This document shows positions 49,243-61,561 of a stretch of 64,000 bases of DNA, piece by piece (positions within the stretch are counted from its first letter, which is position 1; each line of letters opens with the position of its first letter). Source of the DNA: a virus. Under the pieces are notes generated by a model. That model was not told where the DNA came from. It saw only the letters and a list, made by a program, of their open reading frames with translations, and ran no database searches. The stretch lies in UHGV virus genome UHGV-0038016; one strand, written 5' to 3'. A program made the position numbers and the translations under genes.

Positions 49243-50562
49243 GTCGAACTCCTCCTTTATTTACATTTACTCTGGTATCAATATAAAAACTGGGCAGAAC
49301 TATAGATAAATCTACCCCAACCGTGAGACGTCGTAGAAAAAAGACAGTCATGCGATTTTCAATTTTGAAGCTCTGATTAAGTGTTGTTGCCGCGGCTTCC
49401 CTGATTGACTTGTGAATATTTTCACAAATCCCAAAACCATCCCCACTAAAAGCTATTTTAGAAAAAATAACAGCCTGTAAGACCCGCATTAACCCAACCC
49501 CCATGGGCTAAAATAACAATCGTAAATCCAATTCCAATCTCAATTCCATTCCTGAAAACGCCCAAACCCTAATGATAACAAGCCTTTTACTACTGTTGTA
49601 AAAACTTATTGACCTAATTAAATAACGACCTGTGCATCCCTTACCACTAACCTCCTTATTAATTAAATAACACTCATCTGTGTTGCTGCCACCAAAAATA
49701 ACACTTGTTATTTAATAATATCAACTAATTTCTAACATTGAGTGGAATCCTTGTGAAATATTTCACAATCGTTTAAGGTTGTGATTGGTCTAGTCCATCT
49801 ATGTCTACTGCCACAATATATGAATATATGTTCACATGTACATCTCTTCAAGTATTTAAGTATGTTTAAATAACACTTGTTATTTTAAATATCGAACTAT
49901 AAAATTAAATAACCTTTGTTATTCATCGAGTTGCTGGGAACAAGCCGAACATATGTGCGCCAAGTATCTTTGCTTGACACCTTGCGTCAATGAGTTGTAA
50001 GCGCTTACATCTGTGACAATGCTCACAGACTAGCAGTAAGTACATATGAATATATGTACATCTGTTCATTCATACATATGAATAAATTATTATATGAATG
50101 ATTGTACATGTGTGAAATGTTTCACAATGTATTAGCTCATCACATCTCTGCCACCAAACATAACACTTGTTATAATAACTGATAAGTGTTATTTTATATA
50201 AGACTATTTATTCTAACACCTTAATAAAAGATAATAATAGCGCCCACAATACACTTCTTTGCTCTTCTCTTGGGTTTTATAATGCTTAATAGATAATTAT
50301 GCCAAATAATATGAAAAGCTCTTAAAACGTAAAATAAAGCGCTTTCAATTCATCTGTTTAAGTAAATCTTTTGTAAGCGCTTACATCTCTCGATAGTCTA
50401 TTAAAATAACATCTGTTATCGAATGCATATATACATACATAATGTATATAAAAATATTTTGTCTAATGTTAAAAACCATTTGACAATTAGGGTTTTATAT
50501 ATTATACTATTTATAGGGGTTAGATGAATAGCCCTAAAACCTATTGAAAAGAGGTATTCAAA
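49243..50562. promoter_or_regulatory. divergent control region between late (minus-strand) and early (plus-strand) modules; dense operator or iteron arrays; candidate origin of replication
   Basis: About 1.3 kb with no convincing ORF. Three TGTGA-N6-TCACA palindromes at 49411-49426, 49752-49767 and 50111-50126. Two identical TTGTAAGCGCTTACATCT palindromes at 49994-50011 and 50370-50387. Five AATAACA-NN-TGTTATT inverted repeats at 49697-49712, 49869-49884, 49908-49923, about 50160-50173 and 50405-50420. AT-rich CATATGAATATATG direct repeats at 49816-49845 and 50041-50110. Confidence 0.55.
50480..50508 (+). promoter_or_regulatory. sigma-A-type promoter (TTGACA-17-TATACT) for first early gene
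   Basis: TTGACA at 50480-50485, 17-nt spacer, TATACT at 50503-50508, then SD GAGG and ATG at 50563. Confidence 0.6.
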
Positions 50563-50799
50563 ATGAATAATGAAACTCTTGAAGCTATCGAGATTTTAGA
50601 ATTTGCTTTAGAATATGAACTAGAACGAAAGTACCTATCTAAATATAAGAAAGAGCTTACTAGCCCTTTAGTTGATAGCTATGCACTTAGTGAGTGGTTA
50701 CGGAACAAATATGATTTTAGTATGCAATTCCAAAATAGATTTGACATTCATCAAGTGTATAATGATTTTGTTAAATGGTTAAATGAAAATATTTATTGA
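50563..50799 (+). CDS. hypothetical early protein (78 aa)
   Basis: ORF with SD. Its TGA stop forms part of the next promoter's TTGACA. Confidence 0.55.
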   Translation: MNNETLEAIEILEFALEYELERKYLSKYKKELTSPLVDSYALSEWLRNKYDFSMQFQNRFDIHQVYNDFVKWLNENIY

Positions 50800-50825
50800 C
50801 ACCATCCCGAAACTATGGTATATTA
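50796..50825 (+). promoter_or_regulatory. promoter TTGACA-17-TATATT; the -35 box contains the stop codon of the upstream gene
   Basis: TTGACA at 50796-50801. The TGA at 50797-50799 is the stop of the 78-aa gene. -10 TATATT. Leader ATATAGAAAGGAATG. Confidence 0.55.
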
Positions 50826-50850
50826 GATATATAGAAAGGAATGATAATAT

Positions 50851-51210
50851 ATGATAGAGATTATTGAAATAGTTAATTTAAAAACTAATGAGAAATATCC
50901 TATACAAGTAATAACAAAGTCACAATATAATGAAGAAATGTTTTGGAATGAAAACAAAAAAAGTTTATATTTAAAAGGTTATACTAGCTGGCTACCCGAA
51001 AGATGTAATTATGTAGAGCTTCCTAAGAAGTTTTTTAGAAATAAACAGCGAGCAAGTGATACAAATAAATTTCATGATTTTCTTGGCTTTATAACTGAAA
51101 GAATTTGTTTGCTCAATAATACGAATGAAATTAAAATAGTATGGAAAATTGATGAAAAAACAGATTTTTGTGATTTTCTTGAAAAATACTTCTGGGAAAG
51201 AAAAAGATAG
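50851..51210 (+). CDS. hypothetical early protein (119 aa)
   Basis: ORF with AAAGGA SD 10 nt upstream. Followed by terminator/promoter unit 1. Confidence 0.55.
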   Translation: MIEIIEIVNLKTNEKYPIQVITKSQYNEEMFWNENKKSLYLKGYTSWLPERCNYVELPKKFFRNKQRASDTNKFHDFLGFITERICLLNNTNEIKIVWKIDEKTDFCDFLEKYFWERKR

Positions 51211-51249
51211 GTGTTAGGGGTTGACAACAACCTCTAACAATGTTATACT
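51211..51249 (+). promoter_or_regulatory. terminator/promoter unit 1: hairpin gtgttagggg-TTGACAACAA-cctctaaca with -35 in the loop, then TGtTATACT
   Basis: 9-bp stem with one mismatch. TTGACA at 51221-51226. 17-nt spacer. Extended -10 TGTTATACT at 51241-51249. Confidence 0.6.
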
Positions 51250-51281
51250 AATTATAGTTAAAAGAAAGGAATGATTTTAAA

Positions 51282-51767
51282 ATGAGAATAGTTATTGGTA
51301 GTATTTGTTTAGCTGTCTTAATAGGTCTTATGTTGTTTATGATTGGTTATAGTATTAGTGAGGCATGGTATAGAAGAAGAATATACAATCATGATCCAAA
51401 ATTAATGGATAAAAAAACAACAGTAACAACAATAAATAATCGAGTTACTGATGTAATAATGTTTCGAGCAAATCAAGAAGTTTCTAAAAAAATTGTAAGA
51501 AACGCTGATTCTGCTATTTCATGGCTTCAAGTTTCAATTTTAGATATATATTTAATAGATTTTGATACTAACGAACAAGTATGTTTTTCAGTTGTTGGCG
51601 GAAGAATAAACAATCATAACTATCCATTGACAGATAGCGAAATTTTGGCTCTTGAATTATCCAAAAATTTTAATGAAGAAAACTTGAATAAATTTTTAGA
51701 TAGTGAAGAAATGAAAGAAAAAATTGACGTATTAAAAAGAAGTATAATCGGAAAAGAATTAGTATAA
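51282..51767 (+). CDS. hypothetical membrane-anchored early protein (161 aa)
   Basis: N-terminal transmembrane helix IVIGSICLAVLIGLMLFMIGYSI. Leader AAAGAAAGGAATG. Confidence 0.55.
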   Translation: MRIVIGSICLAVLIGLMLFMIGYSISEAWYRRRIYNHDPKLMDKKTTVTTINNRVTDVIMFRANQEVSKKIVRNADSAISWLQVSILDIYLIDFDTNEQVCFSVVGGRINNHNYPLTDSEILALELSKNFNEENLNKFLDSEEMKEKIDVLKRSIIGKELV

Positions 51768-51801
51768 AGGACTTGCAAAAGTCCTTTTTTTGTGCTATAA
51801 T
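51767..51801 (+). promoter_or_regulatory. terminator/promoter unit 2: hairpin aaggact-TGCAAA-agtcctt plus T-run; TTGCAA -35 variant in loop, -10 TATAAT
   Basis: TTGCAA at 51773-51778. 17-nt spacer across the T-run. TATAAT at 51796-51801. Downstream lies a GTAAGCGCTTTC palindrome variant at 51829-51840 and no gene until a second promoter. Confidence 0.5.
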
Positions 51802-51878
51802 AATATTGTACCAAGAGAGGAAAGAAATGTAAGCGCTTTCATTGGAAAAATATTTTTAAACTTTTCGGCGCTTTTCTA

Positions 51879-51906
51879 TTGACTTATCCTATAACTGTGA
51901 TATAAT
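51879..51906 (+). promoter_or_regulatory. promoter TTGACT-16-TGaTATAAT (extended -10)
   Basis: TTGACT at 51879-51884. TGATATAAT at 51898-51906. Feeds the conserved leader ATAAAGAATAAGGAGTGAATAAAATG. Confidence 0.55.
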
Positions 51907-51935
51907 TATATTATAAAGAATAAGGAGTGAATAAA

Positions 51936-52262
51936 ATGCTAGAAAAAGAAATGAAAGAAAAAATTGACGAAATGAAAAAAGAAATTGAAAGAACTGAAAA
52001 ACGTTTACGTAATCATCATCTTTTAATTACAACGCTTTATAAAGATTTTGCTGAATATATAAAAGAGCAACTAGGAGGAGGTTTTTATGATGAAGATATA
52101 ACAGATGCTTCAAAAGATGCTTTAGATATTTTTTTCTCAACAAAAAAGACTTTAGATGCAAAAAACTATCGTATCTATAAAAATTCATTTGAATTAATAT
52201 ATCTTGAACAAGCCGAACAAATAAGGCAAGATGTGTTTGTTGGGAAAATTTTAAGAAGATAA
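51936..52262 (+). CDS. hypothetical early protein (108 aa; ATG start 9 nt inside the track ORF)
   Basis: The track ORF begins at a GTG that is itself part of the SD AAGGAGTG. The ATG at 51936 has the SD 8 nt upstream. The N-terminus is a charged coiled coil. Confidence 0.55.
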   Translation: MLEKEMKEKIDEMKKEIERTEKRLRNHHLLITTLYKDFAEYIKEQLGGGFYDEDITDASKDALDIFFSTKKTLDAKNYRIYKNSFELIYLEQAEQIRQDVFVGKILRR

Positions 52263-52265
52263 TCC

Positions 52266-52294
52266 TTGACAGGGTTATCTCTTTCTGTTATGAT
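52266..52294 (+). promoter_or_regulatory. promoter TTGACA-17-TGtTATGAT
   Basis: TTGACA at 52266-52271. Extended -10 at 52286-52294. Same conserved leader ATAAAGAATAAGGAGTGAATGAAATG. Confidence 0.55.
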
Positions 52295-52323
52295 ATTAAT
52301 ATAAAGAATAAGGAGTGAATGAA

Positions 52324-52740
52324 ATGCTTACAGTAGAACAAAAAGAATATATCAAGAAATTAGATGAAAAAACTGCGATAGTAGAATTAAATGAAGAGAT
52401 AGAGGGCTATAAATTTCTTATAATTGAAAATGTCCTTATTGCTAGAGATTGGCGTTCAAACTTATTTAAAATCTCACTAATGAATTTTATCGAAAAGAAA
52501 AAAATGTTTTCAAAAAAGAAGAAAGTAGAAATCATTTATTCTGAAAAATACCATTATACAGATAAGTGGGAAGAATCTGCAGAAAAAGAAAATTTATTAA
52601 TGTTATCAGAATATAAAAAAGGAAATATCAGATTGATTGACTTACCTTTTGTAAGAGATATGTTTTATTGTGTGGAAGATAGAGAGAAACAGAAAAAGAA
52701 AGAAATTGAACTAGAAAATTTATATAATGAATTTAAGTAA
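52324..52740 (+). CDS. hypothetical early protein (138 aa; ATG start inside the track ORF)
   Basis: SD AAGGAG 8 nt upstream of the ATG at 52324. The GTG at 52315 lies within the SD. Confidence 0.55.
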   Translation: MLTVEQKEYIKKLDEKTAIVELNEEIEGYKFLIIENVLIARDWRSNLFKISLMNFIEKKKMFSKKKKVEIIYSEKYHYTDKWEESAEKENLLMLSEYKKGNIRLIDLPFVRDMFYCVEDREKQKKKEIELENLYNEFK

Positions 52741-52775
52741 AAGGGGTTGACAACCCCTTTTTTACTTGCTATAAT
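52741..52775 (+). promoter_or_regulatory. terminator/promoter unit 3: aagggg-TTGACAA-cccctt hairpin plus T-run; -10 TATAAT
   Basis: GC stem of 6 bp, extendable to 9-10 bp with A/T pairs. TTGACA at 52747-52752 in the loop. Six T's after the stem. 17-nt spacer. TATAAT at 52770-52775. Confidence 0.65.
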
Positions 52776-52808
52776 AAATATATAAATAAAAGAAAGAAGG
52801 TTATAAGA

Positions 52809-53216
52809 ATGATTTATGTTATTATGTTTATTGCTATGTGTTGGTTAGATTGGAAGTTTGATACCTATGCAGGATTTAAATTTTTAGGAAGTTTTATATT
52901 GGGGGGCTTGATTTTCTTCGGTGGTCTTATGCTATGTAGTGATAAACAGACAGAAGTTAGCACCACACAAGAAACATTTATTAGTGGAAATTTTTCAGAA
53001 GAAAATCATAAAATGAATAGTAGCCAAACAGTTTTCGTTTATGCAACTGAAACAGGAACAAAAAGCATTGACACAAATCAAATCTTGAGTTTTAAAAAGA
53101 ATCAGAAAGAAAATAAAGTAATTATTACAGAATATGAGTATCCCAAAATAGCAAAGATTTTATTCTTTATGATTGGCGGCAGTACAACTTATGAAGTAGA
53201 ATTAAAAGAAAAATAA
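52809..53216 (+). CDS. hypothetical early membrane protein (135 aa)
   Basis: Two N-terminal hydrophobic helices (IYVIMFIAMCWL; FLGSFILGGLIFFGGLMLC). Confidence 0.55.
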   Translation: MIYVIMFIAMCWLDWKFDTYAGFKFLGSFILGGLIFFGGLMLCSDKQTEVSTTQETFISGNFSEENHKMNSSQTVFVYATETGTKSIDTNQILSFKKNQKENKVIITEYEYPKIAKILFFMIGGSTTYEVELKEK

Positions 53217-53221
53217 GAAAT

Positions 53222-53255
53222 AAGGGTTGACAAACCCTTATTTTTTTGTTATACT
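53222..53255 (+). promoter_or_regulatory. terminator/promoter unit 4: ataagggtt-GACA-aacccttat hairpin plus T7; TGtTATACT
   Basis: 9-bp stem with TTGACA (53227-53232) spanning stem and loop. T-run at 53241-53247. Extended -10 at 53247-53255. Followed by SD TAAGGAGGG and only a 30-codon ORF (53285-53377) that contains a GAAAGCGCTTACATCT palindrome. Confidence 0.6.
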
Positions 53256-53441
53256 GGAAATGTAAGGAGGGAGGGAACCATAAAATGAAAGCGCTTACAT
53301 CTTTTATACAAAATGAGAAAATTCTAATTAAAATTACAGTGTTTTATTATTGTCTTTCCTCTTGGTCTATGCTATAATAATTATAGAAAGTTAAGGAGGG
53401 AACAAAAAAAATAAAATAAAAAAATAAATTTAATAAAATGC

Positions 53442-53470
53442 TTGACAAAAGCTTTGAGGTTTGCTAATAT
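53442..53470 (+). promoter_or_regulatory. promoter TTGACA-17-TAATAT
   Basis: TTGACA at 53442-53447. TAATAT at 53465-53470. Leader TATAGAAAGGAACAATTAAAATG. Confidence 0.5.
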
Positions 53471-53495
53471 AGAATTATAGAAAGGAACAATTAAA

Positions 53496-53636
53496 ATGAA
53501 AAATAAATATTTAAGATTGAAATTGATTGCTAGAAAGAACCAAAGAGAAAAAGAAATTGACCGAAAAGAAAAAGCTGATAAAATGATAAAAGTGTTGACA
53601 GATGAATTAAGTCGTGTTATAATAGAATCAAGATAA
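53496..53636 (+). CDS. small basic helical protein (46 aa) containing an internal promoter
   Basis: ATG with a conserved leader. Under the 60-aa track cutoff. Contains TTGACA-17-TgtTATAAT at 53595-53623. Confidence 0.3.
   Translation: MKNKYLRLKLIARKNQREKEIDRKEKADKMIKVLTDELSRVIIESR
53595..53623 (+). promoter_or_regulatory. intragenic promoter TTGACA-17-TATAAT inside the 46-aa ORF, driving the next small gene
   Basis: TTGACA at 53595-53600. Spacer gatgaattaagtcgtgt. TATAAT at 53618-53623. Confidence 0.45.
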
Positions 53637-53644
53637 GGAAAGGA

Positions 53645-53812
53645 ATGAAAAAAATGAATAAATATATTTTACTTGTTAAATTCTTAGATGAAATTAGTTT
53701 GGATAGTGGTTATCCTAAAATTGAAGAAATTTTTGTTGAAGGTGATACTTATGAACAAGCCGTTCAAGACTTCAAAGAAGAATTTAAAAATAGAAAATTT
53801 GAAATTATTTAA
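53645..53812 (+). CDS. small hypothetical protein (55 aa)
   Basis: ATG with SD-like AAGGAAAGGAATG. Under the track cutoff. Confidence 0.35.
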   Translation: MKKMNKYILLVKFLDEISLDSGYPKIEEIFVEGDTYEQAVQDFKEEFKNRKFEII

Positions 53813-53815
53813 TAA

Positions 53816-53850
53816 AAAGTGTTGACAAAACATTTTAACAATGATATACT
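53816..53850 (+). promoter_or_regulatory. terminator/promoter unit 5 (weak hairpin aagtgtt-GACAA-aacattt with one G-U pair) with TTGACA then TGaTATACT
   Basis: TTGACA at 53822-53827. Extended -10 at 53842-53850. Weaker stem than the other units. Confidence 0.45.
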
Positions 53851-53881
53851 TAATATATAGAAAAGGAAAGGAAGTTTTAAA

Positions 53882-54085
53882 ATGAAATTATCTGAATTAG
53901 TATTATTAATTGTTTTTGTAGGAATTTTGGTCGCTGGAGGTATCTTACTACCATTCTATTTTACTTATCAAGCTATTTTATATACTGGATTTTTCTCTAT
54001 TCAAAGCTTGTTACTAATTGCTCTAACAACTATCACAAGTTATAGCGTTGTTACTTTCTTAAAAGAAAATTGGGAAAAGGCTTGA
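53882..54085 (+). CDS. small two-helix membrane protein (67 aa)
   Basis: LVLLIVFVGILVAGGILLPFYF and FFSIQSLLLIALTTITSYSVV. Its TGA stop lies inside the TTGACA of unit 6. Confidence 0.55.
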   Translation: MKLSELVLLIVFVGILVAGGILLPFYFTYQAILYTGFFSIQSLLLIALTTITSYSVVTFLKENWEKA

Positions 54086-54110
54086 CAAGCCTTTCTCAAT
54101 ACTCTATAAT
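54075..54110 (+). promoter_or_regulatory. terminator/promoter unit 6: aaaggc-TTGACAA-gccttt hairpin; -10 TATAAT; apparently orphan (no ORF before next promoter)
   Basis: TTGACA at 54082-54087 includes the stop codon at 54083-54085. TATAAT at 54105-54110. About 55 nt of transcript would precede the next promoter, with an AT hairpin aatttc-ttgtta-gaaatt. Confidence 0.5.
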
Positions 54111-54164
54111 AAGAGTATAAAGAAAACAACAAAAAATTTCTTGTTAGAAATTAGTATAAAACAC

Positions 54165-54193
54165 TTGACAAACAAACCAAAATGTTTTATACT
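54165..54193 (+). promoter_or_regulatory. promoter TTGACA-17-TATACT upstream of winged-helix-like gene copy 1
   Basis: TTGACA at 54165-54170. TATACT at 54188-54193. Confidence 0.5.
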
Positions 54194-54249
54194 AAGAATG
54201 TAATAAGAAATTATTACAAAAAAAATATTTTAAAAAGGTGGAATTTATC

Positions 54250-54663
54250 ATGGAAAAACAAATCACAAAAGCACAAGCATTGGAATTAGCGGTTAAAGTA
54301 GTAAGCAAAGCAATCGAGGATAAAACATTTTTAAATACTGACCTATTTGAAAAAGTTGATATTGAATTATTAAACAAATTGGAAGCTATGCACGCTCAAC
54401 AAGTGAAACAAGACAAGGCAAAACGTGGCAAAAAAGGCGTAAGCAAAACAGCAAAAGAAAAAGCTGAAAATATGGACAAAGTACGAAAAGCATTTCTTGA
54501 CTTAGAACCAGAAACAGCCTTAACATTACACGAAATTTCTGAACTAATTGGGCTTGTTGGCGCTACACCTCAAAAATTGACGGCAATCATGAAGCCTTTA
54601 GTCGATAATGAAGAATTTGAAAAAGTTGTAAAGGATAAAAAAGTAGCTTACAAATTGAAATAA
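54250..54663 (+). CDS. hypothetical DNA-binding-like protein (137 aa), module copy 1, gene 1
   Basis: SD AAAGGTGG, then ATG at 54250 (the track GTG at 54238 lies in the SD). Lys-rich central region and conserved C-terminus TPQKLTAIMKPLVDNEEFEKVVKDKKVAYKLK. Paralog of the gene at 59786. Confidence 0.55.
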   Translation: MEKQITKAQALELAVKVVSKAIEDKTFLNTDLFEKVDIELLNKLEAMHAQQVKQDKAKRGKKGVSKTAKEKAENMDKVRKAFLDLEPETALTLHEISELIGLVGATPQKLTAIMKPLVDNEEFEKVVKDKKVAYKLK

Positions 54664-54670
54664 GTTAGTA

Positions 54671-54706
54671 AAAGGGCTTGACAAGCTCAAGCCCTTTTGT
54701 TATACT
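54671..54706 (+). promoter_or_regulatory. terminator/promoter unit 7: 10-bp perfect stem aaagggcttg/caagcccttt, TTGACA in stem-loop, TTTTG, TGtTATACT
   Basis: Stem 54671-54680 / 54688-54697. TTGACA at 54678-54683. Extended -10 at 54698-54706. Confidence 0.65.
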
Positions 54707-54756
54707 TAAATAGTAGTTAAGGAACAAATAAATTTATTGAAAAGGTGGAAAATTGT

Positions 54757-55476
54757 ATGCAAGAAACATTTTTGATTTTAGATACTGAAACAACAAAAGA
54801 AGGCGAGGGAATGCCTTATCAATCAGTTTTCGATATTGGTTGGGCTATTTCAGACAAAAAGGGAAATATCTTAGTAGAACGTTCTTACATGGTAGAACAA
54901 TTCAAATTTCAAGCATTGAATAAAAAACGTGCTTTCCTGATTGATGAAAATGTAGTTGATGGAAAAATATATTTTACAAAATTACTTGAAAAAAGAATCA
55001 TTGTCAGTAAGTGGGCGAACATTATCGGGCAACTTAAAAAAGATTGTAAAAAATATAACGTTGCTTACATTGGCGCTTATAATTTAGGTTTTGACACTCG
55101 TGTAATTGCAAAAACTCATTTCTTTTTTTCGGGGAAGGATTTTGATTTCTTTGATAATTTCTTTTTGATTGATATTTATCCAGTTGCCGCCTATACTGTA
55201 TTAAATACGCCAGAATATAAAGAGTTCGCAAAAACTCACAACCTTTTGACAGAAAAAGGAAATTATCAAACAGGGGCAGAAGCAACTTACAAATTTTTGT
55301 TTAATGATACAGGTTACATTGAAGAGCATACTGCTTTACAGGATAGCATAGATGAAACAAAAATTTTACATTGTCTATTGAGTCAAGAAAAAGAAATTCC
55401 TATTCATGCCTATTCTATCAATCCTCAAGCGTGGCGAATTGTAAACGAAGAAAATTTAAATAAGAAAAAGAGTTGA
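54757..55476 (+). CDS. DEDDh-type 3'-5' exonuclease (DnaQ/RNase T-like), 239 aa; module copy 1, gene 2
   Basis: Exo I LILDTETT, Exo II YIGAYNLGFDTRV, Exo III HTALQDSIDE. ATG at 54757 after SD AAAGGTGG. Paralog of the gene at 60258. Confidence 0.7.
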   Translation: MQETFLILDTETTKEGEGMPYQSVFDIGWAISDKKGNILVERSYMVEQFKFQALNKKRAFLIDENVVDGKIYFTKLLEKRIIVSKWANIIGQLKKDCKKYNVAYIGAYNLGFDTRVIAKTHFFFSGKDFDFFDNFFLIDIYPVAAYTVLNTPEYKEFAKTHNLLTEKGNYQTGAEATYKFLFNDTGYIEEHTALQDSIDETKILHCLLSQEKEIPIHAYSINPQAWRIVNEENLNKKKS

Positions 55477-55501
55477 CACAACTCTTTTTCTTTGATATAA
55501 T
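55466..55501 (+). promoter_or_regulatory. terminator/promoter unit 8: aaaagagttg-ACA-caactctttt hairpin plus T-run, TTGACA containing stop codon, TGaTATAAT
   Basis: TTGACA at 55473-55478, with the TGA at 55474-55476 being the exonuclease stop. 10-bp stem. TATAAT at 55496-55501. Confidence 0.65.
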
Positions 55502-55527
55502 ATAACTATAGAAAGGAATGATACTAT

Positions 55528-55776
55528 ATGCTAATAACAAGAAGTTACAAAAGAAAAAGAAAAGTCCAAGAGAGGAAAGAGAAAATTATAATGGCGCTCG
55601 TTGGTGTGGCTGTCCTACTAATGATATTGTTTTTTATTCTAACGCCAATAATTGCTACAGTCTTTTCTTTTTATGTTGGTTTTGTTTTTACTTTTAAAAA
55701 TGTAATTGGTTTAGTTTTTCTTTATCTTTATAGCTGGGGAAGTTTATATCTTTTATACGATCATATTTTGGGATAG
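55528..55776 (+). CDS. small membrane protein (82 aa)
   Basis: Two hydrophobic helices (VAVLLMILFFILTPIIATVFSFYVGFVF; IGLVFLYLYSWGSLYLL). Confidence 0.5.
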   Translation: MLITRSYKRKRKVQERKEKIIMALVGVAVLLMILFFILTPIIATVFSFYVGFVFTFKNVIGLVFLYLYSWGSLYLLYDHILG

Positions 55777-55798
55777 CCTAAAAAGGCTATCTTTTTTT
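55772..55798 (+). terminator. strong intrinsic terminator (gatagcct-aaaa-aggctatc plus T7), without embedded promoter
   Basis: 8-bp perfect stem with a 7-T run. Followed by about 200 bp of non-coding DNA before the next cassette. Confidence 0.7.
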
Positions 55799-56003
55799 AT
55801 ATTGAAGGCTTGTGAAATAGTGAGCAAATTTGCCGTTTTCGGGCGGAAATTTTACCACAAAATTAGGTCTATGTCAAGAAAAAAATCAAAATTTTTTCTA
55901 AAAGTTTAATGAGAAAAAATATCCTAAAACTCATGTATTTATTATTTGATTTTTTTAGTTTTATTTGTTATAATTGTTATAGAAAGTTAAGGAGGGGACG
56001 AAA

Positions 56004-56252
56004 ATGGATAAAATGAAAAAAGATATTAATACCATTTTAGAAAATTCTACAGATGAAGAAATTAGCGATTTTTATGGTAAAGCTGATTGGGAAGGATTAG
56101 TCTATTATGTTTCTAATTGGGCAACGCCTTTTGATAAAAATCCTATTTATAAAAAATATATGCAAAAACCTTTTTTTGAAGCCTTAAAATTTTTAGAAAG
56201 TCTTTTTGTGGCTTGCGATAATTATCTTTGGGAAAAAAGAGAAAATAGTTGA
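56004..56252 (+). CDS. hypothetical early protein (82 aa)
   Basis: Leader TTATAGAAAGTTAAGGAGGGGACGAAAATG. Its TGA stop lies inside the next TTGACA. Confidence 0.55.
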   Translation: MDKMKKDINTILENSTDEEISDFYGKADWEGLVYYVSNWATPFDKNPIYKKYMQKPFFEALKFLESLFVACDNYLWEKRENS

Positions 56253-56277
56253 CACAAAAAAGTTCTCATGTTATACT
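56249..56277 (+). promoter_or_regulatory. promoter TTGACA-17-TGtTATACT (no hairpin), -35 contains upstream stop codon
   Basis: TTGACA at 56249-56254. Extended -10 at 56269-56277. Followed by the 35-bp leader ttatactatatatatagtaaaggaaaggaatg, which recurs exactly at 57847-57881. Confidence 0.55.
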
Positions 56278-56309
56278 ATATATATAGTAAAGGAAAGGAA
56301 TGGTGTTAT

Positions 56310-56717
56310 ATGCAAGAAACATTTTCTAACGGCGAAAAGATTACTTCTCATGATTGGAAATTAATTGATGAAATGGTTGAAAAATTAGAGCTAAATCTTG
56401 CTGAAGCTATCGAGTTAAGAGAGTTTGATAAGTTTGAAAGTGACAAGAAAACAGACTTTGAAAAAGAACAAAAAGAAATCAAGAAAGCTAAAAATGCAAA
56501 AGCAAAAATTACAGATGATGAAATTGACGACTTATTTAACAATGTAGTGAAAATTGCTTTCGGTGGCAAAGAGTATTTTCAAAATAAAGATTTTCATTTG
56601 TTAGTTGCTGACAAATACACAAACCGTCAGACCCCTAGCAGATTGAAAAAAATGAAAGAAAAGGGATATTTGGAAGATTTAGGTGGAAGTCCTAAAAAAT
56701 ATAAGGTAAAGGGTTGA
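56310..56717 (+). CDS. hypothetical early protein (135 aa; ATG start 42 nt inside the track ORF)
   Basis: The track ORF begins inside the promoter -10 region. The ATG at 56310 follows the leader AAAGGAAAGGAATGG. It shares the N-terminus MQETF with the exonuclease at 54757. Confidence 0.5.
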   Translation: MQETFSNGEKITSHDWKLIDEMVEKLELNLAEAIELREFDKFESDKKTDFEKEQKEIKKAKNAKAKITDDEIDDLFNNVVKIAFGGKEYFQNKDFHLLVADKYTNRQTPSRLKKMKEKGYLEDLGGSPKKYKVKG

Positions 56718-56742
56718 CAAACCCTTTACCACCTGTTATAAT
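56704..56742 (+). promoter_or_regulatory. terminator/promoter unit 9: 11-bp perfect stem ggtaaagggtt-GACA-aaccctttacc, TTGACA containing stop codon, TGtTATAAT
   Basis: TTGACA at 56714-56719 (TGA stop at 56715-56717). TATAAT at 56737-56742. No T-run after the stem. Confidence 0.6.
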
Positions 56743-56771
56743 AATAGTATAAAGAATAAGGAGTGAACGAA

Positions 56772-57143
56772 ATGCAAATTTTTAAAACATTTGAAGAAAA
56801 GAAAGTAAAACTAATTGGAGTGGACGAGCTTTGTGTTTATACTGGGAAATTTAACTTATTAACTAATAATATGATTGTTAAATTATATTATAAAGGTTCT
56901 TTAGTTGCAAAAAGAAAACGGAAAATTCAAAATGAATATGATTATAAACTAGTCGAATTTTTTGAGGATAATGAAGCTGATGAATTAACAGAAGTATATA
57001 ATTTTTTCGGGTCGAATAATTTTATTAGCGACAGTGACAAGCACAGAATCCACAGTATTGACGTGACAGATTTTTCTGCAAAAGAAAAAATTGAAAAAAT
57101 TAATGTAAAGGAAAAAATTACTAAAAAGTTTTTTGAGGGTTGA
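56772..57143 (+). CDS. hypothetical early protein (123 aa; ATG start inside the track ORF)
   Basis: Third copy of the leader ATAAAGAATAAGGAGTGAACGAAATG. The GTG at 56763 lies within the SD. Confidence 0.55.
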   Translation: MQIFKTFEEKKVKLIGVDELCVYTGKFNLLTNNMIVKLYYKGSLVAKRKRKIQNEYDYKLVEFFEDNEADELTEVYNFFGSNNFISDSDKHRIHSIDVTDFSAKEKIEKINVKEKITKKFFEG

Positions 57144-57175
57144 GGGTTGACTTTTCAACCCTTATAATATATAAT
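57143..57175 (+). promoter_or_regulatory. terminator/promoter unit 10: agggttga-CTTT-tcaaccct hairpin with TTGACT, -10 TATAAT
   Basis: TTGACT at 57147-57152. 17-nt spacer. TATAAT at 57170-57175. Confidence 0.55.
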
Positions 57176-57201
57176 AAGAATATAGAAAGGAGTTGTAACA
57201 A

Positions 57202-57504
57202 ATGCTTTTATTTACTAAAAAAGTTATTATCACACAACACGCCAAAGAGCGCTACTTAGAAAGAGTAGCGAAAGAACAAATGAATAATAGACAAGTTCGT
57301 TCGGCAATTCTTAACGATTTTCAAATTAAAAACGTAAGAAAGAAAACGCCAAAAAATGAAGAGAATGAATTTAAATTGTGGGTTTTCGGTTCTCGCTTAT
57401 ATGTCTGTAATGAAACAGATAAAACTATAGTAGTAAAAACTGTTATTCAAATGTTACCAGAGGACGAAAAAAGAATTATCAAAGAAATTGAGGAAAAGGG
57501 TTGA
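57202..57504 (+). CDS. hypothetical early protein (100 aa)
   Basis: Leader ATATAGAAAGGAGTTGTAACAAATG. Its TGA stop lies in the TTGACA of unit 11. Confidence 0.55.
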   Translation: MLLFTKKVIITQHAKERYLERVAKEQMNNRQVRSAILNDFQIKNVRKKTPKNEENEFKLWVFGSRLYVCNETDKTIVVKTVIQMLPEDEKRIIKEIEEKG

Positions 57505-57529
57505 CAAACAGCCCTTTCCTTGATATAAT
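57495..57529 (+). promoter_or_regulatory. terminator/promoter unit 11: aaaggg-TTGACAAACAG-cccttt hairpin, -35 contains stop codon, TGaTATAAT
   Basis: TTGACA at 57501-57506 (stop at 57502-57504). TATAAT at 57524-57529. Confidence 0.55.
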
Positions 57530-57561
57530 AATTATAGAAAGTTAAGAAAGGAATGAATTAA

Positions 57562-57819
57562 ATGCAAATGAATGTTTTTGTAAACAATGGTAACTATTAT
57601 ATTATTGAGAGTTTCCCAGAAGTAAAAATTTTTCTCCACGATCAAATTTTAAATGGTAAGCTGGCTTATGAATTTAGAAAAGGAGAAAATAGAAGTGATT
57701 TCTATTATTTTAGATTTAAGAATTTATCTATGTCAAAAAGTTTGATTGGTAAATTAGTAGCCAAAATAAATGGAAAAATTTTATTAAAACGATTAGAAAA
57801 ATTTAATCAAGAAAATTAA
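57562..57819 (+). CDS. hypothetical early protein (85 aa)
   Basis: Leader TTATAGAAAGTTAAGAAAGGAATGAATTAAATG. Confidence 0.55.
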   Translation: MQMNVFVNNGNYYIIESFPEVKIFLHDQILNGKLAYEFRKGENRSDFYYFRFKNLSMSKSLIGKLVAKINGKILLKRLEKFNQEN

Positions 57820-57857
57820 GTAAAGGGGTTGACTCCCCTTTACTTCCATGTTATACT
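57820..57857 (+). promoter_or_regulatory. terminator/promoter unit 12: gtaaagggg-TTGACT-cccctttac hairpin (loop is exactly the -35), TGtTATACT
   Basis: 9-bp perfect stem. TTGACT at 57829-57834. Extended -10 at 57849-57857. Followed by an exact copy of the 35-bp leader. Confidence 0.65.
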
Positions 57858-57889
57858 ATATATATAGTAAAGGAAAGGAATGAATTTAA

Positions 57890-58060
57890 ATGATTATTTT
57901 AAGTAATAAAAAAATGTATGAAAGATTAGAAAGACTTTGGGAAACAAGGGGAAACGAAAAAGAAAGCTTTGAGGATTTCCTTTTGGATTTATGTAACGAA
58001 TATATTATTAACACTGCAGAGCTGAAAAAATTTAGTGATTATCATAAAAACAAAAGATGA
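57890..58060 (+). CDS. small hypothetical protein (56 aa), last gene of the cassette array
   Basis: ATG after the conserved leader. Under the track cutoff. Followed by a strong terminator. Confidence 0.35.
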   Translation: MIILSNKKMYERLERLWETRGNEKESFEDFLLDLCNEYIINTAELKKFSDYHKNKR

Positions 58061-58086
58061 GATTTTTCTCATCTTTTTTTAATTTT
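58053..58086 (+). terminator. strong intrinsic terminator (aagatgaga-tttt-tctcatctt plus T7)
   Basis: 9-bp stem overlapping the stop codon. Long T-run. Confidence 0.7.
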
Positions 58087-58870
58087 GCTTGTGAATTTTT
58101 TCACAAAAAAATACGTGTTATTTTAAAAGCGAAGTTTGTGAAATGTATAAAATAAAATAACAACCCAAAAGGAAGAAGATAAAATAACATTGTGGGGGCG
58201 GGGTTCCCAAAACCTTGATGTATCAAGCTTTCATTTTCATTTTCATAAATTGGAAATTGATTTTCAAAAATAAAATAACAGAATCCTGAAACTAAAGTTT
58301 GTGAAATGAATAAAATAACAAATAGAGGACGTTATTTTTCGGCCGCTCGCTGGCGAGCGCCATTTTACTGTGTTATTTTATCCCTGTCAAGTTTTTGGCT
58401 TGTTATTTAATTGTTTTTTAATGTTATTTTAATATCCCAAAAGTCCATGCATGTGATTTTTTTCACAACCCAGAAAGCCTATTATATCAAGCTTTCACAG
58501 CCTTTTCATTCCAAGAGAGCAAGAGAATGTGAATGTGCGCACAAGCCAGAGTGTGTTATTTTTCTGCTCTTGGGTGTTATTTTATGTTTGTGAATTATTT
58601 CACATGTATTTTTTTGCCTGTTATTGAAACAACAATGAAAATTTCTGAAAATCTATTGAAAGCTTGATCTGACGCAGTTTGTAAGCGCTTACAGGTTTAT
58701 AAAATAACATGTGTCCAAAGAAAAGCTGTTATTTAATTATAAAATAACGCCTGGTGAATTGTGTGTAAATTAGAAACAGTTCTCATTAAACTTTAATAAT
58801 TTTAATGTATAAAATGCTTTACTTTTTATCATTTATCCCTTATACTAAGTATATAAGATAAAGGGAGGAC
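58087..58870. repeat. non-coding repeat island: TGTGA-N6-TCACA operators, AAATAACA iterons, GTAAGCGCTTAC palindrome, ATCAAGCTTTCA inverted repeats, GC hairpin
   Basis: Full TGTGA-N6-TCACA sites at 58090-58105, 58452-58467 and 58589-58604. Half sites TTTGTGAAATG at about 58137 and 58299. At least 12 copies of (A)AATAACA/TGTTATT(T). GTAAGCGCTTAC at 58681-58692. ATCAAGCTTTCA at about 58225 and 58486, with its inverse at about 58652. GGACGTTATTTTTCGGCCGCTCGCTGGCGAGCGCC hairpin at about 58320-58355. Confidence 0.55.
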
Positions 58871-58877
58871 GAAAGAA

Positions 58878-59504
58878 ATGAAAAATTTAATTCTAACAGA
58901 TGTAGATGGAACACTAACAAGGAAAAGCGTTGTTTTATCTCATGCGGGTTTTTTAATTGAAAAAGGAATTATTAAAGATGACGGCTCTTTTAAAGCATGG
59001 AAAAAAGACGTTAAGAATGAAAGTCTAATTGTTGCCGTTGCTGAAAATTATCGCAACGAGATAACAGGAAAAACAGAAAAAGAAATGCATGCAGAAGAGT
59101 TCGTTTCTCAATTTTTAGAAAATGAAAAAAATTGGTATGAAACATTGGACGATTTAAAAGAAAAAATTTTACAAGGCTTTGAGGTTGTTCTTGTTACAGG
59201 TTCGAGCGATTTTCTAATTAAGCATTTAGCTAACTTTTTGGGTTGTTCATATTATGCAACGGAATATTTAAAAGCAGACAACTGTTTTACCGGAAAAGTC
59301 AAGGGAATGTTTTCAGAATCACAAAAAGACGACTGTATTCAATGGAACATAAATACAAATGAATATAGTTATATAGAGGCGTGGGGAGATACTGCGAGCG
59401 ATTTCGGTTTATTCAAACATGCTGATTATCGTTTACTAGTCGAACCAACAAAACAAACACTAGAAACACTAATCAAAAAAATCACGATTGATAAAATTAT
59501 TTAA
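58878..59504 (+). CDS. HAD-superfamily hydrolase / phosphatase (208 aa)
   Basis: Motif I LILTDVDGTLT (DxDGT). Motif IV GDTASDFGLFKHAD. SD AAGGGAGG. Confidence 0.7.
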   Translation: MKNLILTDVDGTLTRKSVVLSHAGFLIEKGIIKDDGSFKAWKKDVKNESLIVAVAENYRNEITGKTEKEMHAEEFVSQFLENEKNWYETLDDLKEKILQGFEVVLVTGSSDFLIKHLANFLGCSYYATEYLKADNCFTGKVKGMFSESQKDDCIQWNINTNEYSYIEAWGDTASDFGLFKHADYRLLVEPTKQTLETLIKKITIDKII

Positions 59505-59514
59505 GACTTTATGC

Positions 59515-59700: not shown

Positions 59701-59729
59701 TTGCAAAATAATTGAAAATCGTTTATACT
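59701..59729 (+). promoter_or_regulatory. promoter TTGCAA-17-TATACT (third tandem)
   Basis: TTGCAA at 59701-59706. TATACT at 59724-59729. Followed by a 32-nt leader identical to that of the gene at 54250. Confidence 0.5.
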
Positions 59730-59785
59730 TAAAGAGTAGTAAGGGAACAACTTACTAACAAAATTTTAAAAAGGTGGAATTTATC

Positions 59786-60175
59786 ATGGAAAAAACACAA
59801 TTTGAAAAACTAGTCGTAGCTGAAAAATTTGCAGAAGTTGCTCGCATTTTGGCAAACGTGAAAGCACCGCAAGAAGTTATTGATTTTGTCGTAGAAAAAG
59901 GCGAACAAGCCCAAAAACGTAACGCTAACCGCAAACCTAGCCAAAGCAAGACAAACAAAGAAAAAATCGCAGACATGCAAAAAATTCAAGAATGGTTCTT
60001 TGAAGAAGCTGACCCAGAAACATTTTACACAAGTCAAGAAGTCAATGAAGCTTTAGAGTTTGACTACACTCCGCAAAAAATGACCCCACGCCTAAAAGGT
60101 CTAGTAGAACAAGGAATCCTAGAAAAAGGAATCGCAACAAGTGACAAGAAAAAAGTGGGCTACAAAATTATCTAA
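59786..60175 (+). CDS. hypothetical DNA-binding-like protein (129 aa), module copy 2, gene 1
   Basis: Leader ATTTTAAAAAGGTGGAATTTATCATGGAAAAA identical to 54219-54255. Protein is homologous to the 54250 gene product (KTNKEKIADMQKIQEWF...DPETFYTSQEV...TPQKMTPRLKGLVEQGILEKG...KKVGYKII). Confidence 0.55.
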   Translation: MEKTQFEKLVVAEKFAEVARILANVKAPQEVIDFVVEKGEQAQKRNANRKPSQSKTNKEKIADMQKIQEWFFEEADPETFYTSQEVNEALEFDYTPQKMTPRLKGLVEQGILEKGIATSDKKKVGYKII

Positions 60176-60184
60176 GGAACGTCT

Positions 60185-60222
60185 AAGGCTAGGCGTAAAA
60201 ACCTAGCCTTTAATTTTTTCAA
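60185..60222 (+). terminator. intrinsic terminator (aaggctagg-cgtaaaaa-cctagcctt plus T-run)
   Basis: 9-bp perfect stem followed by TAATTTTTT. Confidence 0.6.
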
Positions 60223-60257
60223 AAAAAATTTTTATTAAAAAGGTGGAAACGGTAAGC

Positions 60258-61016
60258 ATGAAAATTGACAAAAGAAAAAAATATATTTTAGTATTAGATG
60301 TAGAAACAGCTGGGGATGTTGAAAAAAATCCATTATGTTACGATGTAGGTTTTGTTGTAGCTGATAAAAAAGGGAATATCTATGAAGAACATTCGTTCGC
60401 AATTTCAGAAATTTTTGATGATGATGCTTTAATGCGTAGCGCTTACTACTATACAAAATTGCCTTTGTATCGTGAGAAAATTTCTCAGGGGATTATGAAA
60501 GTGAAGCCGTTTAGATATGTTAGAAGAGTTATTCTTAACATTATAGAAAAATACAATATCAAAACCGTAGCAGCCTATAACGCTTATTTTGATTTTGTCA
60601 AAGCTTTAAATAATACATGGCAAGAATTGACAAACTATCCATTTTTCTTCCCTTATGAAGTAGGGAAAAATTTAGAAATCAATTGCATTTGGCATATGGC
60701 TTGCCAGACAATTTTTTCGCAGAAAAGTTTTCCAAAATGGGCTTTTGAGAATGGTTACTACTCAAAAGCCGGCAATCTGAAAACAAATGCGGAAGTCGCT
60801 TATAACTGGATGATGAAAACAACCGACTTTGTGGAAGAACATACAGGGCTGGCAGATGTATATATAGAAACGGCAATAATGGCATGGTGTTATAAACAAC
60901 ACAAAAAAATGAATCGAAAAATAAATAGAATGTGTTGGCGTATCCCTACAAAAATTCATTCTGAAAAAATTTCTGAAATTAACATGAAAGAATTTGAAGC
61001 AAGTTTTCAAAATTAA
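60258..61016 (+). CDS. DEDDh-type 3'-5' exonuclease (252 aa); module copy 2, gene 2
   Basis: Exo I LVLDVETAG, Exo II AAYNAYFDFV, Exo III HTGLADVYIE. SD AAAGGTGG and ATG at 60258. Paralog of the gene at 54757. Confidence 0.7.
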   Translation: MKIDKRKKYILVLDVETAGDVEKNPLCYDVGFVVADKKGNIYEEHSFAISEIFDDDALMRSAYYYTKLPLYREKISQGIMKVKPFRYVRRVILNIIEKYNIKTVAAYNAYFDFVKALNNTWQELTNYPFFFPYEVGKNLEINCIWHMACQTIFSQKSFPKWAFENGYYSKAGNLKTNAEVAYNWMMKTTDFVEEHTGLADVYIETAIMAWCYKQHKKMNRKINRMCWRIPTKIHSEKISEINMKEFEASFQN

Positions 61017-61030
61017 TAAATGAGAAAATG

Positions 61031-61054
61031 GTGAGAGAAATCTCACTATTTTTT
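61031..61054 (+). terminator. intrinsic terminator (gtgaga-gaaa-tctcac plus T-run)
   Basis: 6-bp stem followed by TATTTTTT. Confidence 0.5.
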
Positions 61055-61056
61055 AA

Positions 61057-61561
61057 TCTATGAAAATGAAAATATTTTTGAAAGTTTTCATGAAATTTTC
61101 TGAAAATCAAATTTTTCTCAAAATTGTAAAATTAGAGATTTCTAATAATTTTTTTGTTATTTTTTAATAATAGTTTGTGAAAAATTAAAATTCTCTTGTT
61201 ATTTAAAAAACGTAAAATAACAGAAAAAACTTAATTTATAAAATAACACCGTCCCAAAACGTTGATATGACAGGCTTTCCAGCTTCCTGAATTAATATTC
61301 AATAACATGAATAAAAAACCAAAATCCCAAAACTGTTATTTTAATTTGTGAAAATTAGAATTCTCTCATAAGGGGACGTTATTTTTTGGCCGGTCGTGCA
61401 CGGCCGGAACCCAGCCTAATGTCGACCACCACGCTAGATTTTTTCCCCGTTAAAGGCTTGCCTCGTAAAGCCAGGATTTTTTCCTAAAACTCAGCACCCC
61501 TTGATTTTTTCTGTATAAAATGTTATAATAAAACAGAGAGGATAAATTATCCTGCCTAATA
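61057..61561. repeat. non-coding repeat island paralogous to 58.1-58.4 kb (AAATAACA iterons, TTTGTGAAA half sites, GGACGTTATTTTTTGGCCGG GC hairpin)
   Basis: TGTGA half sites at 61176-61180 and 61347-61351. At least 7 AATAACA/TGTTATT copies. GGGGACGTTATTTTTTGGCCGGTCGTGCACGGCCGG at about 61372-61407, which parallels GAGGACGTTATTTTTCGGCCGCTCGCTGGCGAGCGCC at 58.3 kb. The segment AAAATAACAccgtCCCAAAACgTTGATaTgaCAgGCTTTC parallels 58185-58235. A TTGATT-17-TATAAT promoter-like element lies at about 61503-61531. Confidence 0.5.

Follow-up and report, generated by a model that had tools for sequence, protein, structure and literature searches.

The locus described here raises the question of what recognises a palindrome, TGTGA-N6-TCACA, that is repeated in the gene-free DNA of a phage. 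It lies in a stretch of 64,000 nucleotides of the virus genome UHGV-0038016, hereafter the window, which is a region of an Enterococcus phage with a genome of ~138 kb. The close GenBank relatives of the window are only the phages H1, EF1, EF5 and VRE9_1 to VRE9_4 (~94% identical); Enterococcus phage H1 is a complete relative of 138,084 bp, and phages of this close clade were deposited with vancomycin-resistant and clinical Enterococcus hosts. Small plus-strand genes fill 50.5–61.0 kb, with minus-strand blocks on either side, in what looks like an early, host-takeover-type gene cluster. According to the list of open reading frames (ORFs), three gene-free islands bracket and interrupt this cluster (Table 1). 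The explanation favoured here, with a probability of about one half, is that the palindromes are 18-bp Rex-type operators that would be bound by the Rex protein of the enterococcal host, in a hub of sites for several host repressors.

Palindromes of the gene-free islands

The palindrome (TGTGANNNNNNTCACA) has seven perfect matches in the 64 kb, whereas shuffled sequences contain a mean of 0.03 and a maximum of 1. A preliminary description had listed six, starting at 49411, 49752, 50111, 58090, 58452 and 58589. All six are real and exactly placed, but a seventh at 50012–50027 (TGTGACAATGCTCACA) had been missed. The accompanying claim of confinement to three non-coding islands stands as regards confinement, all seven perfect sites being located in islands 1 and 2, but not as regards the number of islands, as none is found in island 3. 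Confinement extends to the whole genome of H1, in which all 6 perfect sites reside in the two homologous islands and none elsewhere in 138 kb. If one mismatch is allowed, just two more sites appear, 58528 in island 2 and 63015 within an ORF. The half site TTTGTGAAA occurs in 8 copies in the window, compared with 2.57 expected, and 2 of the 8 are part of full palindromes. Four separate half sites had been reported and are present at 58135, 58298, 61174 and 61345, 1–2 nt from the positions originally given; the remaining two TTTGTGAAA copies lie in coding DNA (25548 and 43738). The spacing of the boxes is irregular (341, 359, 362 and 137 bp). Similarity between copies stops at the palindrome edges, and segmental duplication was therefore ruled out as the source of the repetition. 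The coding sequence H1_81 annotated in GenBank (window ORF 49193–49504) overlies the equivalent of the site at 49411. A real gene over this box was ruled out by frame-breaking indels: because the indels are not multiples of three across lineages and the ORF is uncalled in most other lineages, the region is most likely non-coding. The hexamer TTGACT had been noted as abutting the same site, and it does abut and overlap it (49405–49410). It was rejected as a -35 element, since no -10 follows at 16–18 nt and the hexamer is not conserved across lineages.

The identity of the palindrome as a regulatory site becomes clearer when positions outside the core are considered. Rex is a dimeric winged-helix NADH/NAD+ repressor of Firmicutes that occupies DNA at high NAD+ and leaves it as NADH rises. 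The Rex operator (ROP) is an 18-bp inverted repeat, TTGTGAA-N4-TTCACAA, with critical arm positions 4–5. The consensus in Staphylococcus aureus is TTGTGAAW4TTCACAA, and near-identical operators are found in Streptococcus mutans, S. pneumoniae, S. suis and S. agalactiae. Mutagenesis of the S. aureus operator has revealed that the spacer must be A/T-rich and constant in length for binding by Rex, which is strongly impaired when the length is changed. A Rex protein is reported to have been characterised in E. faecalis (Vesic and Kristich 2013, as cited by others). Six of the seven sites in the window fit TTGTGAA-N4-TTCACAA at no more than 2 mismatches (three perfect, two with one mismatch, one with two). 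In all six the spacer is N4, with 23 of 24 spacer bases A/T, and the critical G/C positions of the arms are intact. The seventh palindrome, which directly adjoins a cre-type site at 49996, is atypical in the window; in H1, VRE9_1 and VRE9_3 it reads TGTGACAAC(G/A)TTCACA and is thus nearer the Rex type.

Distant lineages were gathered via homologs of the 620-aa gene beside island 1, and a Carnobacterium-associated 139-kb contig as well as a further lineage reached through the 133-aa protein of Table 1 were added; protein-based searches of IMG/VR yielded only one near-identical contig. The flanking protein of the distant lineages is 32–50% identical to that of the window. Gene order is kept (the 66-aa gene, genes for ~620 and ~339 aa, then PhoH and YonG/YonD-like genes), and a gene-free island of 1.2–1.6 kb occupies the equivalent place in the lineages that are complete there (L010, L011, L016, L019, L021 and L028). 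These islands are 8–25% alignable with island 1 of the window, in a proximal block and motif-sized fragments only. Palindrome boxes are nevertheless found again in the corresponding island of six or more distant lineages. N4 boxes number three in L010, four in L011, two in L019, one in L021 and five to six in L026/L028, with 0.03–0.09 expected by chance, while the coding DNA of the distant lineages contains no N4 box except one match with 1 mismatch (L026, position 18900). None of the 26 N4 boxes departs from the Rex 18-mer at more than 2 positions; T or A occupies the outer position in 94% of half-sites, and A/T makes up 86% of the spacers. Island 2 is 86% identical to its counterpart in L026/L028, whose proteins are ~50% identical. 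In the box at 58089 both arms are invariant while the spacer reads TTTT in the window, AATT in L028 and AAAA in L026, which is the signature of recognised half-sites. Box 6 is kept in place in L028 (position 9431), and box 5 has decayed in L026/L028. Within the close clade, boxes 1 and 2 are invariant (box 1 in 6 genomes), and the position of box 5 reads ATGTGAA in other members. The earlier view of the palindromes as the operator set of a dimeric helix-turn-helix regulator is thus upheld by invariant arms, a free A/T spacer, confinement to islands and maintenance in distant lineages. The early genes that face the islands are unrelated between lineages. A conserved divergent gene could therefore be ruled out as the cognate regulator, and the binder must be either conserved elsewhere in the phage or encoded by the host.

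Two further families of operator-like palindromes accompany the boxes. Five cre-type sites (TGTAAGCGCTTACA) are found in the window, compared with 0.25 expected, and only in the islands and the intergenic gaps of the early cluster. All five match WTGNAANCGNWNNCW with a central CG (9 strand-counted matches vs 1.15 expected), which is the cre consensus applied to E. faecalis and has 34 intergenic matches in the 3.2-Mb genome of strain V583. Perfect copies are present in distant lineages as well (five in L010, three in L021 and three in L026/L028). The copy at 53286 covers about +23 to +37 relative to a strong promoter of the early cluster, a classical position for CcpA. The family suggests either a host CcpA input to early transcription or titration of CcpA. 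The second family, GAAC-N4-GTTC/GAACATATATTC, is of SOS type and also occurs in L010, L011, L016, L021 and L028. The LexA (Cheo/SOS) box of Firmicutes has a GAAC-N4-GTTC core within CGAACRNRYGTTYC; perfect GAAC-N4-GTTC boxes are found in L016, L021, L011, L028 and L031, and L016 carries a perfect Firmicute LexA-type CGAACGTATGTTCG just downstream of consensus sigma-A promoters (1057–1350). The copies in the window bear one core mismatch to the LexA box (GAATATATGTTC; CGAACATATGTGCG), and they also resemble ARG boxes. As a side observation, L031 holds 16 boxes of the GAAC-N4-GTTC type in 12 kb. The mix of operator families is lineage-specific and drawn from a common palette. Since two to three families equal the consensuses of different host repressors, a purely coincidental resemblance is unlikely, and the cre and SOS-type matches raise the prior that the TGTGAA boxes are host-factor sites too. 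Their presence in the islands alongside the boxes points to a general tendency of these phages to carry sites for host repressors.

Table 1. Positions of the islands, boxes, accompanying operator-like sites and candidate genes in the window
Feature	Position	Strand	Sequence	Remarks
Island 1	49243..50562			between the minus-strand late/structural operon and the plus-strand early genes; ORF list
Island 2	58061..58877			inside the plus-strand cluster, upstream of the HAD-like gene 58878-59504; ORF list
Island 3	61017..61591			gene-free; half sites only, no full palindrome
Box 1 (proximal)	49410..49427		TTGTGAATATTTTCACAA	perfect 18-bp Rex-type box, 168 bp upstream of the 66-aa gene
Box 2	49751..49768		TTGTGAAATATTTCACAA	perfect; equals the ROP core co-crystallised with S. 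agalactiae Rex
Seventh palindrome	50012..50027		TGTGACAATGCTCACA	atypical: C at both inner arm positions, G/C in spacer
Box 3	50110..50127		GTGTGAAATGTTTCACAA	1 mismatch
Box 4	58089..58106		TTGTGAATTTTTTCACAA	perfect; just downstream of the bidirectional terminator 58052-58077
Box 5	58451..58468		ATGTGATTTTTTTCACAA	2 mismatches
Box 6	58588..58605		TTGTGAATTATTTCACAT	1 mismatch
Conserved non-coding block around box 1, ~90 nt	49369..49457	-	GGGGATGGTTTTGGGA-box-...GCCGCGGCAACAACACTTAA	alignment
'Half-site' element	58132..58155; second copy 58295-58318	+	AAGTTTGTGAAATGTATAAAATAA	repeat family D4
Island 3 half site	61171..61183; second copy 61342-61354	+	TAGTTTGTGAAAA	
Cre-type palindrome	49996..50009; also 50372-50385, 58680-58693		TGTAAGCGCTTACA	all three perfect
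Cre-type palindrome with 1 mismatch	51828-51841, 53286-53299		TGTAAGCGCTTACA	early-cluster intergenic gaps
SOS-type family	49821..49834 (TGAATATATGTTCA), 49946-49959 (CGAACATATGTGCG), 50047-50060		GAAC-N4-GTTC / GAACATATATTC	repeat families D2, D3, D5
133-aa protein	59774..60175	+		paralog of 54238-54663 (141 aa); candidate phage-encoded binder
Exonuclease-like genes	60243-61016; paralog 54745-55476			after the 59774 gene and the 54238 gene, respectively

Candidate binders of the palindromes

We infer binding by Rex, and every consequence drawn from it, from the operator match, the confinement to islands, the maintenance across lineages and the absence of a phage gene for Rex or CRP: no homolog of either was detected by tblastn in the H1 genome, the window or the distant loci searched (best E 5.7), the Rex query having been validated against PDB 2VT2. 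The hub would consist of Rex boxes, CcpA cre palindromes and SOS/LexA-type GAAC-N4-GTTC boxes in the islands that bracket the early genes. In an oxidised, well-fed and undamaged cell, Rex, CcpA and an SOS-type repressor would occupy the islands of the phage DNA. Rex would shut the minus-strand island promoters that its boxes overlap (50089–50116 and 58481–58509), and the repressors would jointly hinder RNA synthesis that begins in the islands or passes through them, such as that running leftward to the late operon starting at 49242; on the minus strand from 50089 to 49242 no intrinsic terminator was detected. Occupancy would drop with rising NADH, or once replicating phage genomes exceed the pool of repressor. 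Confidence in these consequences is lower than in the identity of the binder.

The promoters in question emerged from a promoter scan. One arm of box 3 supplies the -35 (TTCACA) of a minus-strand promoter-like site at 50116..50089 (TTCACA-16-TATAAT, 11/12), and box 5 covers about +7 to +24 relative to an extended -10 promoter-like site on the minus strand (TGATATAAT, 58481–58489). Several observations weigh against Rex as the binder. Only these two of the six boxes (50110 and 58451) overlap sigma-A-like promoters, the other four being without a convincing one; both overlaps are unconserved in L026/L028, and promoter-like sites are not enriched in the islands of L010 and L011. In the close clade, 7.4% of columns are variable in the boxes and 9.1% in the rest of the islands, values that are not measurably different; footprinting among the window, H1, EF1, VRE9_1, VRE9_3 and VRE9_4 was set aside because there is too little divergence for it to be informative. 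The spacer of the proximal box is N3 in five of seven lineages (L010, L011, L016, L017 and L021), and an N3 box is also present in island 3 of L026/L028. Given the spacer mutagenesis in S. aureus, an N3 spacer should weaken Rex binding. Conserved non-palindromic flanks, namely GCATGTGAA in L010 and L011 and the ~90-nt block around box 1, exceed what Rex needs. Finally, a conserved family of phage winged-helix proteins is encoded near the islands, with homologs in L021, L026 and L028, and the regular tandem arrays of 29–34 bp found in other contigs resemble the iterons of phage-encoded proteins, although decoy arrays look alike.

The proximal box deserves separate consideration. It has a homolog in all 7 lineages, 145–220 bp upstream of the 66-aa gene, and is the sole box present in every lineage. 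The ~90-nt block around it is the main alignable segment of island 1 in most lineage pairs, and this element may be recognised by something other than Rex, such as a late promoter factor or a packaging protein. The block is also seen at 3805–3890 of L010 and 1770–1860 of L016, shared by lineages with proteins 32–50% identical. It was rejected as a structured RNA in view of a consensus energy of -1.6 kcal/mol and no covariation support.

The occurrence of the box in other viruses bears on all candidate binders. IMG/VR was scanned for two perfect boxes 100–130 bp apart, with two composition-matched scrambled palindromes as controls. Such pairs are present in 12 contigs, as opposed to 2 and 1 for the controls (6–12 times), of which two is a small number. 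Several of these contigs have tandem arrays: L030 contains ~22 boxes at a 29-bp period (1–700 and 2313–2816), L034 five perfect 29-bp repeats (11623–11795), and L031, L035 (7010–7204), L037 (414–607) and L038 have periods of 33–34 bp. In general, the arrays comprise 5 to ~25 TTGTGAA-N4-TTCACAA boxes at periods of 29–34 bp in gene-free DNA, a further example being L032 (2471–3841). The contigs with box pairs span 26–47% GC, and homologs of the tested window proteins were found among them in L031 and L033 only (the exonuclease-like gene). That the arms are identical in phages with no other relationship is compatible with a conserved host protein, which would be Rex in Firmicutes and possibly CRP for the higher-GC contigs with looser inner arm positions. 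Some arrays have a packaging gene as neighbour, namely TerL in L034 and the gene of a gp3-like protein in L040.

A host regulator of a different kind had been considered at the outset, as the 16-bp core TGTGA-N6-TCACA is the classical CRP-type core and is matched by all seven perfect sites. In S. aureus, ArcR, a Crp/Fnr protein that can bind such motifs in vitro, was initially regarded as the factor acting on this motif, and an ArcR/Flp-like protein of enterococci might do the same here. Arginine deiminase promoters combine ArcR/Flp, CcpA and ArgR sites, and the co-occurrence of cre with TGAAT/GAAC-type families in the islands recalls them. However, the S. aureus motif was later shown to be the Rex operator and to be controlled by Rex, ArcR affecting the arc operon only. 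The phage sites behave accordingly outside the CRP core: the TTGTGAA...TTCACAA flanks, the T/A outer base and the A/T-rich N4 spacer follow Rex, so that the original CRP/Fnr-type assignment is not supported. Moreover, no consistent spacing between boxes and promoter-like sites, such as the activator-type distances of about -41.5 or -61.5, was found in the window, L010 or L011, and the tblastn searches of phage DNA uncovered no Crp-like gene. Binding by a Crp/Fnr-type host regulator is thus very unlikely.

More weight attaches to a protein of the phage itself, and the proposal that two small early proteins are paralogs proved correct (34% identity). A phage-encoded dimeric winged-helix protein, for which the products of 54238–54663 and 59774–60175 are the best candidates, could use the boxes as operators or iterons to control either early/late transcription or the initiation of replication; in that case, the boxes would look like the Rex operator by chance, or as mimics that compete with Rex. 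The AlphaFold 2 (AF2) model of the 133-aa protein (pLDDT, a predicted local confidence score, 86) displays three long helices and a C-terminal winged helix, which Foldseek aligns with winged helices of the MarR/ZitR/MepR/Fur type at a root-mean-square deviation of 2.3–2.9 Å over ~67 columns. The family is widespread (80 matches) and occurs in the box-bearing L021, L026 and L028, the module at 59774 is flanked by islands 2 and 3, and the box-bearing L031 and L033 share the exonuclease-like gene. Two paralogs could explain N3 and N4 boxes side by side, and the arrays of 29–34 bp elsewhere have an iteron-like appearance. Yet no winged-helix homolog was detected in any array-bearing contig, and identical arms in phages of 26–47% GC without detectable common genes would be unusual for phage specificities. 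An exact host operator consensus beside exact cre and SOS consensuses is hard to credit to chance. The Foldseek E-values are weak (2e-3 or higher), dimerisation and DNA specificity of the candidates are putative, and these proteins could equally bind the far more abundant motif TWAAATAACA (38 copies). A phage-encoded binder is accordingly judged credible, though somewhat unlikely. The role in early/late switching or replication that had been proposed for the sites was not borne out, with two of six boxes overlapping sigma-A-like promoters and neither enriched DnaA boxes nor iterons in the islands.

The palindromes might also act through structure rather than as protein-binding sequence, as cruciforms or DNA or RNA hairpins in replication priming, packaging and terminus formation or a non-coding RNA. 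Each box can form a 7-bp stem with a loop of 3–4 nt, which would tolerate the difference between N3 and N4. Island 2 is possibly transcribed, with a conserved minus-strand promoter and a GC hairpin showing a compensatory change, the arrays of L034 and L040 adjoin terminase genes, and contig L009 begins inside the proximal palindrome. However, the stems are sequence-invariant over deep divergence and lack covariation, which indicates sequence-specific recognition. The putative island 2 transcript reaches a fold z-score of only -2.0, and a search of 48–64 kb against Rfam gave no match at E <= 1. An action by structure is therefore regarded as highly improbable. A replication origin of the iteron/DnaA-box type was rejected for the islands: the window has 20 DnaA box matches with 21 expected, none of them in the islands, and contains no iteron-type tandem arrays.

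A variant of host-repressor binding assigns the islands a different purpose. As transcription-factor sponges, they would carry promoter-less operators of maximum affinity for Rex, CcpA and LexA and out-titrate these repressors as phage genomes multiply. If so, host functions in fermentation and NAD+ regeneration, carbon catabolism and the SOS response would be derepressed, and roadblocks on the phage late operon lifted, in a protein-free, copy-number-driven takeover and early-to-late timer; the tandem arrays of 5–25 boxes in unrelated contigs would be the extreme form of the device. The idea draws on the fact that the sites lack promoters, are of consensus grade and vary in number; it is considered distinctly unlikely.

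Other elements of the islands and of the phage

Island 1 is bordered on the left by the 66-aa ORF (49042–49242), the first gene of the minus-strand late/structural operon, and on the right by the first plus-strand early gene, which starts at 50563; relatives have this island annotated with trivial ORFs only. Approximately 20 early genes have their own near-consensus sigma-A promoter (TTGACA-17-TATAAT) in the promoter scan. From 50480 to 57860, there are ~20 consensus or near-consensus sigma-A promoters, 6 of them perfect, or roughly one per small ORF, and many early promoters are within or adjoin the terminator hairpin of the preceding gene, which makes the module unusually dense. Searches of 20 ORFs in or beside the early cluster against Pfam detected no domain except one HAD hydrolase. 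Between the islands, the early cluster is mosaic among relatives (48–96% coverage), while the islands themselves stay 95–98% identical. Local duplications of ~110 bp distinguish clade members, in island 1 of L004 (VRE9_4) and island 2 of L006 (VRE9_1).

The half-site-like element AAGTTTGTGAAATGTATAAAATAA is, judging from its conservation as such in L026/L028, a distinct repeat and not a broken palindrome. The half site at 61171 in island 3 is probably a decayed box, as it aligns beside a full N4 box of L026/L028, and its second copy is within a rearranged stretch. The commonest island motif is TWAAATAACA, represented by 38 ATAACR cores in 2.7 kb of islands. Of 29 exact AAATAACA copies in the window, 26 reside in the islands (49467–50419, 58116–58749 and 61155–61526). 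Its copies are irregularly spaced on the two strands and in many cases form the palindrome AAATAACACTTGTTATTT; the motif is present in L026/L028 and L021 and absent from the island of L010. The phage winged-helix paralogs are candidate binders of it. These paralogs belong to a duplicated two-gene module (54238–55476 and 59774–61016), in which a winged-helix-like protein of 141 or 133 aa is followed by a protein of 243 or 257 aa with DEDD-exonuclease-like motifs and a weak PHROG match to a DNA polymerase exonuclease subunit. CodY boxes are weakly enriched in the window (7 vs 2.75 expected); the CodY-box-like AATTTTCTGAAAATC (1 mismatch) is found in islands 2 and 3 at 61094–61108, 58639–58653 and 61111–61125.

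In island 2, comparison of 58040–58480 with 8880–9330 of L026/L028 reveals a conserved minus-strand promoter, TTGACA-17-TAAAAT (58362–58390), abutted by a GC hairpin (58340–58360) with a compensatory C-G to G-C change in L026. Together with the terminator at 58052–58077 they delineate a candidate non-coding RNA of ~300 nt. The 3′ part of island 3 (61376–61590) is strongly conserved with L026/L028. Its GC-rich palindrome GGCCGGTCGTGCACGGCCGG is a paralog of the island 2 hairpin context GGACGTTATTTTTYGGCCG, and a promoter, TTGATT-17-TGTTATAAT (61501–61529), is followed within ~50 nt by hairpins; promoter and hairpins may encode a tiny transcript.

GenBank places the clade as unclassified within Caudoviricetes. 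The gene content (window 1–49000, the downstream genes of L009, L010 and L017, and the annotation of H1) points to an SPbeta-like phage group, the gene set including YonG_N and YonD_N domains, a PhoH-like protein and a DNA polymerase III alpha-like protein. The phage gene content also includes ribonucleotide reductases of class Ia and class III, together with flavodoxin, glutaredoxin and thioredoxin reductase; having an aerobic as well as an anaerobic reductase suits a phage exposed to its host in either redox state.

Proposed operators of host repressors in phage DNA

The boxes share the 18-bp repeat and the A/T-rich spacer with the ROPs of S. aureus (adhE, ldh1) and streptococci (adhE, ldh and rex promoters). 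Host operators, however, overlap or closely follow the -35/-10 elements of a repressed promoter, with one to four per promoter, whereas the six to seven phage boxes are scattered through gene-free DNA, in most cases with no promoter that can be recognised, and have an N3 relative in most lineages. With the CRP/FNR sites of E. coli CRP or Firmicute ArcR/Flp they have in common the core TGTGA-N6-TCACA and recognition by a dimeric protein, but their flanking and inner positions follow the Rex consensus and activator-type spacing is lacking. LexA boxes control some phage genes, usually through one or two sites at a defined promoter and typically in temperate phages. Both those phages and the one described here carry sites for a host global regulator on their DNA, so that development can read host physiology; the present locus differs in having three operator families that are multi-copy and largely promoter-less. 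Phage T5 has an injection-stop region by its pre-early genes that is gene-free and contains repeats, palindromes and DnaA boxes. The layout is similar, in that small early genes under strong host-type promoters lie next to 1–1.5 kb of non-coding DNA rich in repeats, palindromes and sites for host proteins, although T5 belongs to a different phage group and its host protein is DnaA, the boxes for which are not enriched here. Promoter-less, repeated high-affinity sites are also the layout of decoy arrays for transcription factors, which the tandem arrays of L030 and L034 fit. The decoy arrays described (PMC3322331) are a synthetic, eukaryotic system in yeast, whereas sequestration by the phage is putative. 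The literature searched contained neither a natural phage example of a decoy array nor a description of Rex boxes carried by phage genomes.

Judged by their sequence, the Rex-box sets would be an addition to the host-repressor operators known on phage DNA, and the phenomenon may be general, since arrays occur in other phages. A single phage genome has 7 perfect cores and 5 cre-type sites. The whole genome of S. aureus contains 16 perfect motifs upstream of genes, and E. faecalis V583 the 34 intergenic cre matches cited above. With a hundred copies of the genome, the sites on phage DNA would be far more numerous than those of the host, which makes titration of master regulators a concrete and testable idea. 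If host Rex binds the boxes, a phage of vancomycin-resistant enterococci would be wired to the NADH/NAD+ state of its host; binding of host factors to the cre and SOS-type boxes would likewise tie it to DNA damage and the supply of carbon. The islands are also defined targets for engineering, in which deletion or mutation of boxes could alter the timing of the phage. With such wiring to the host, phage performance in the anaerobic gut as compared with aerated culture would be affected, which would matter for phage therapy.

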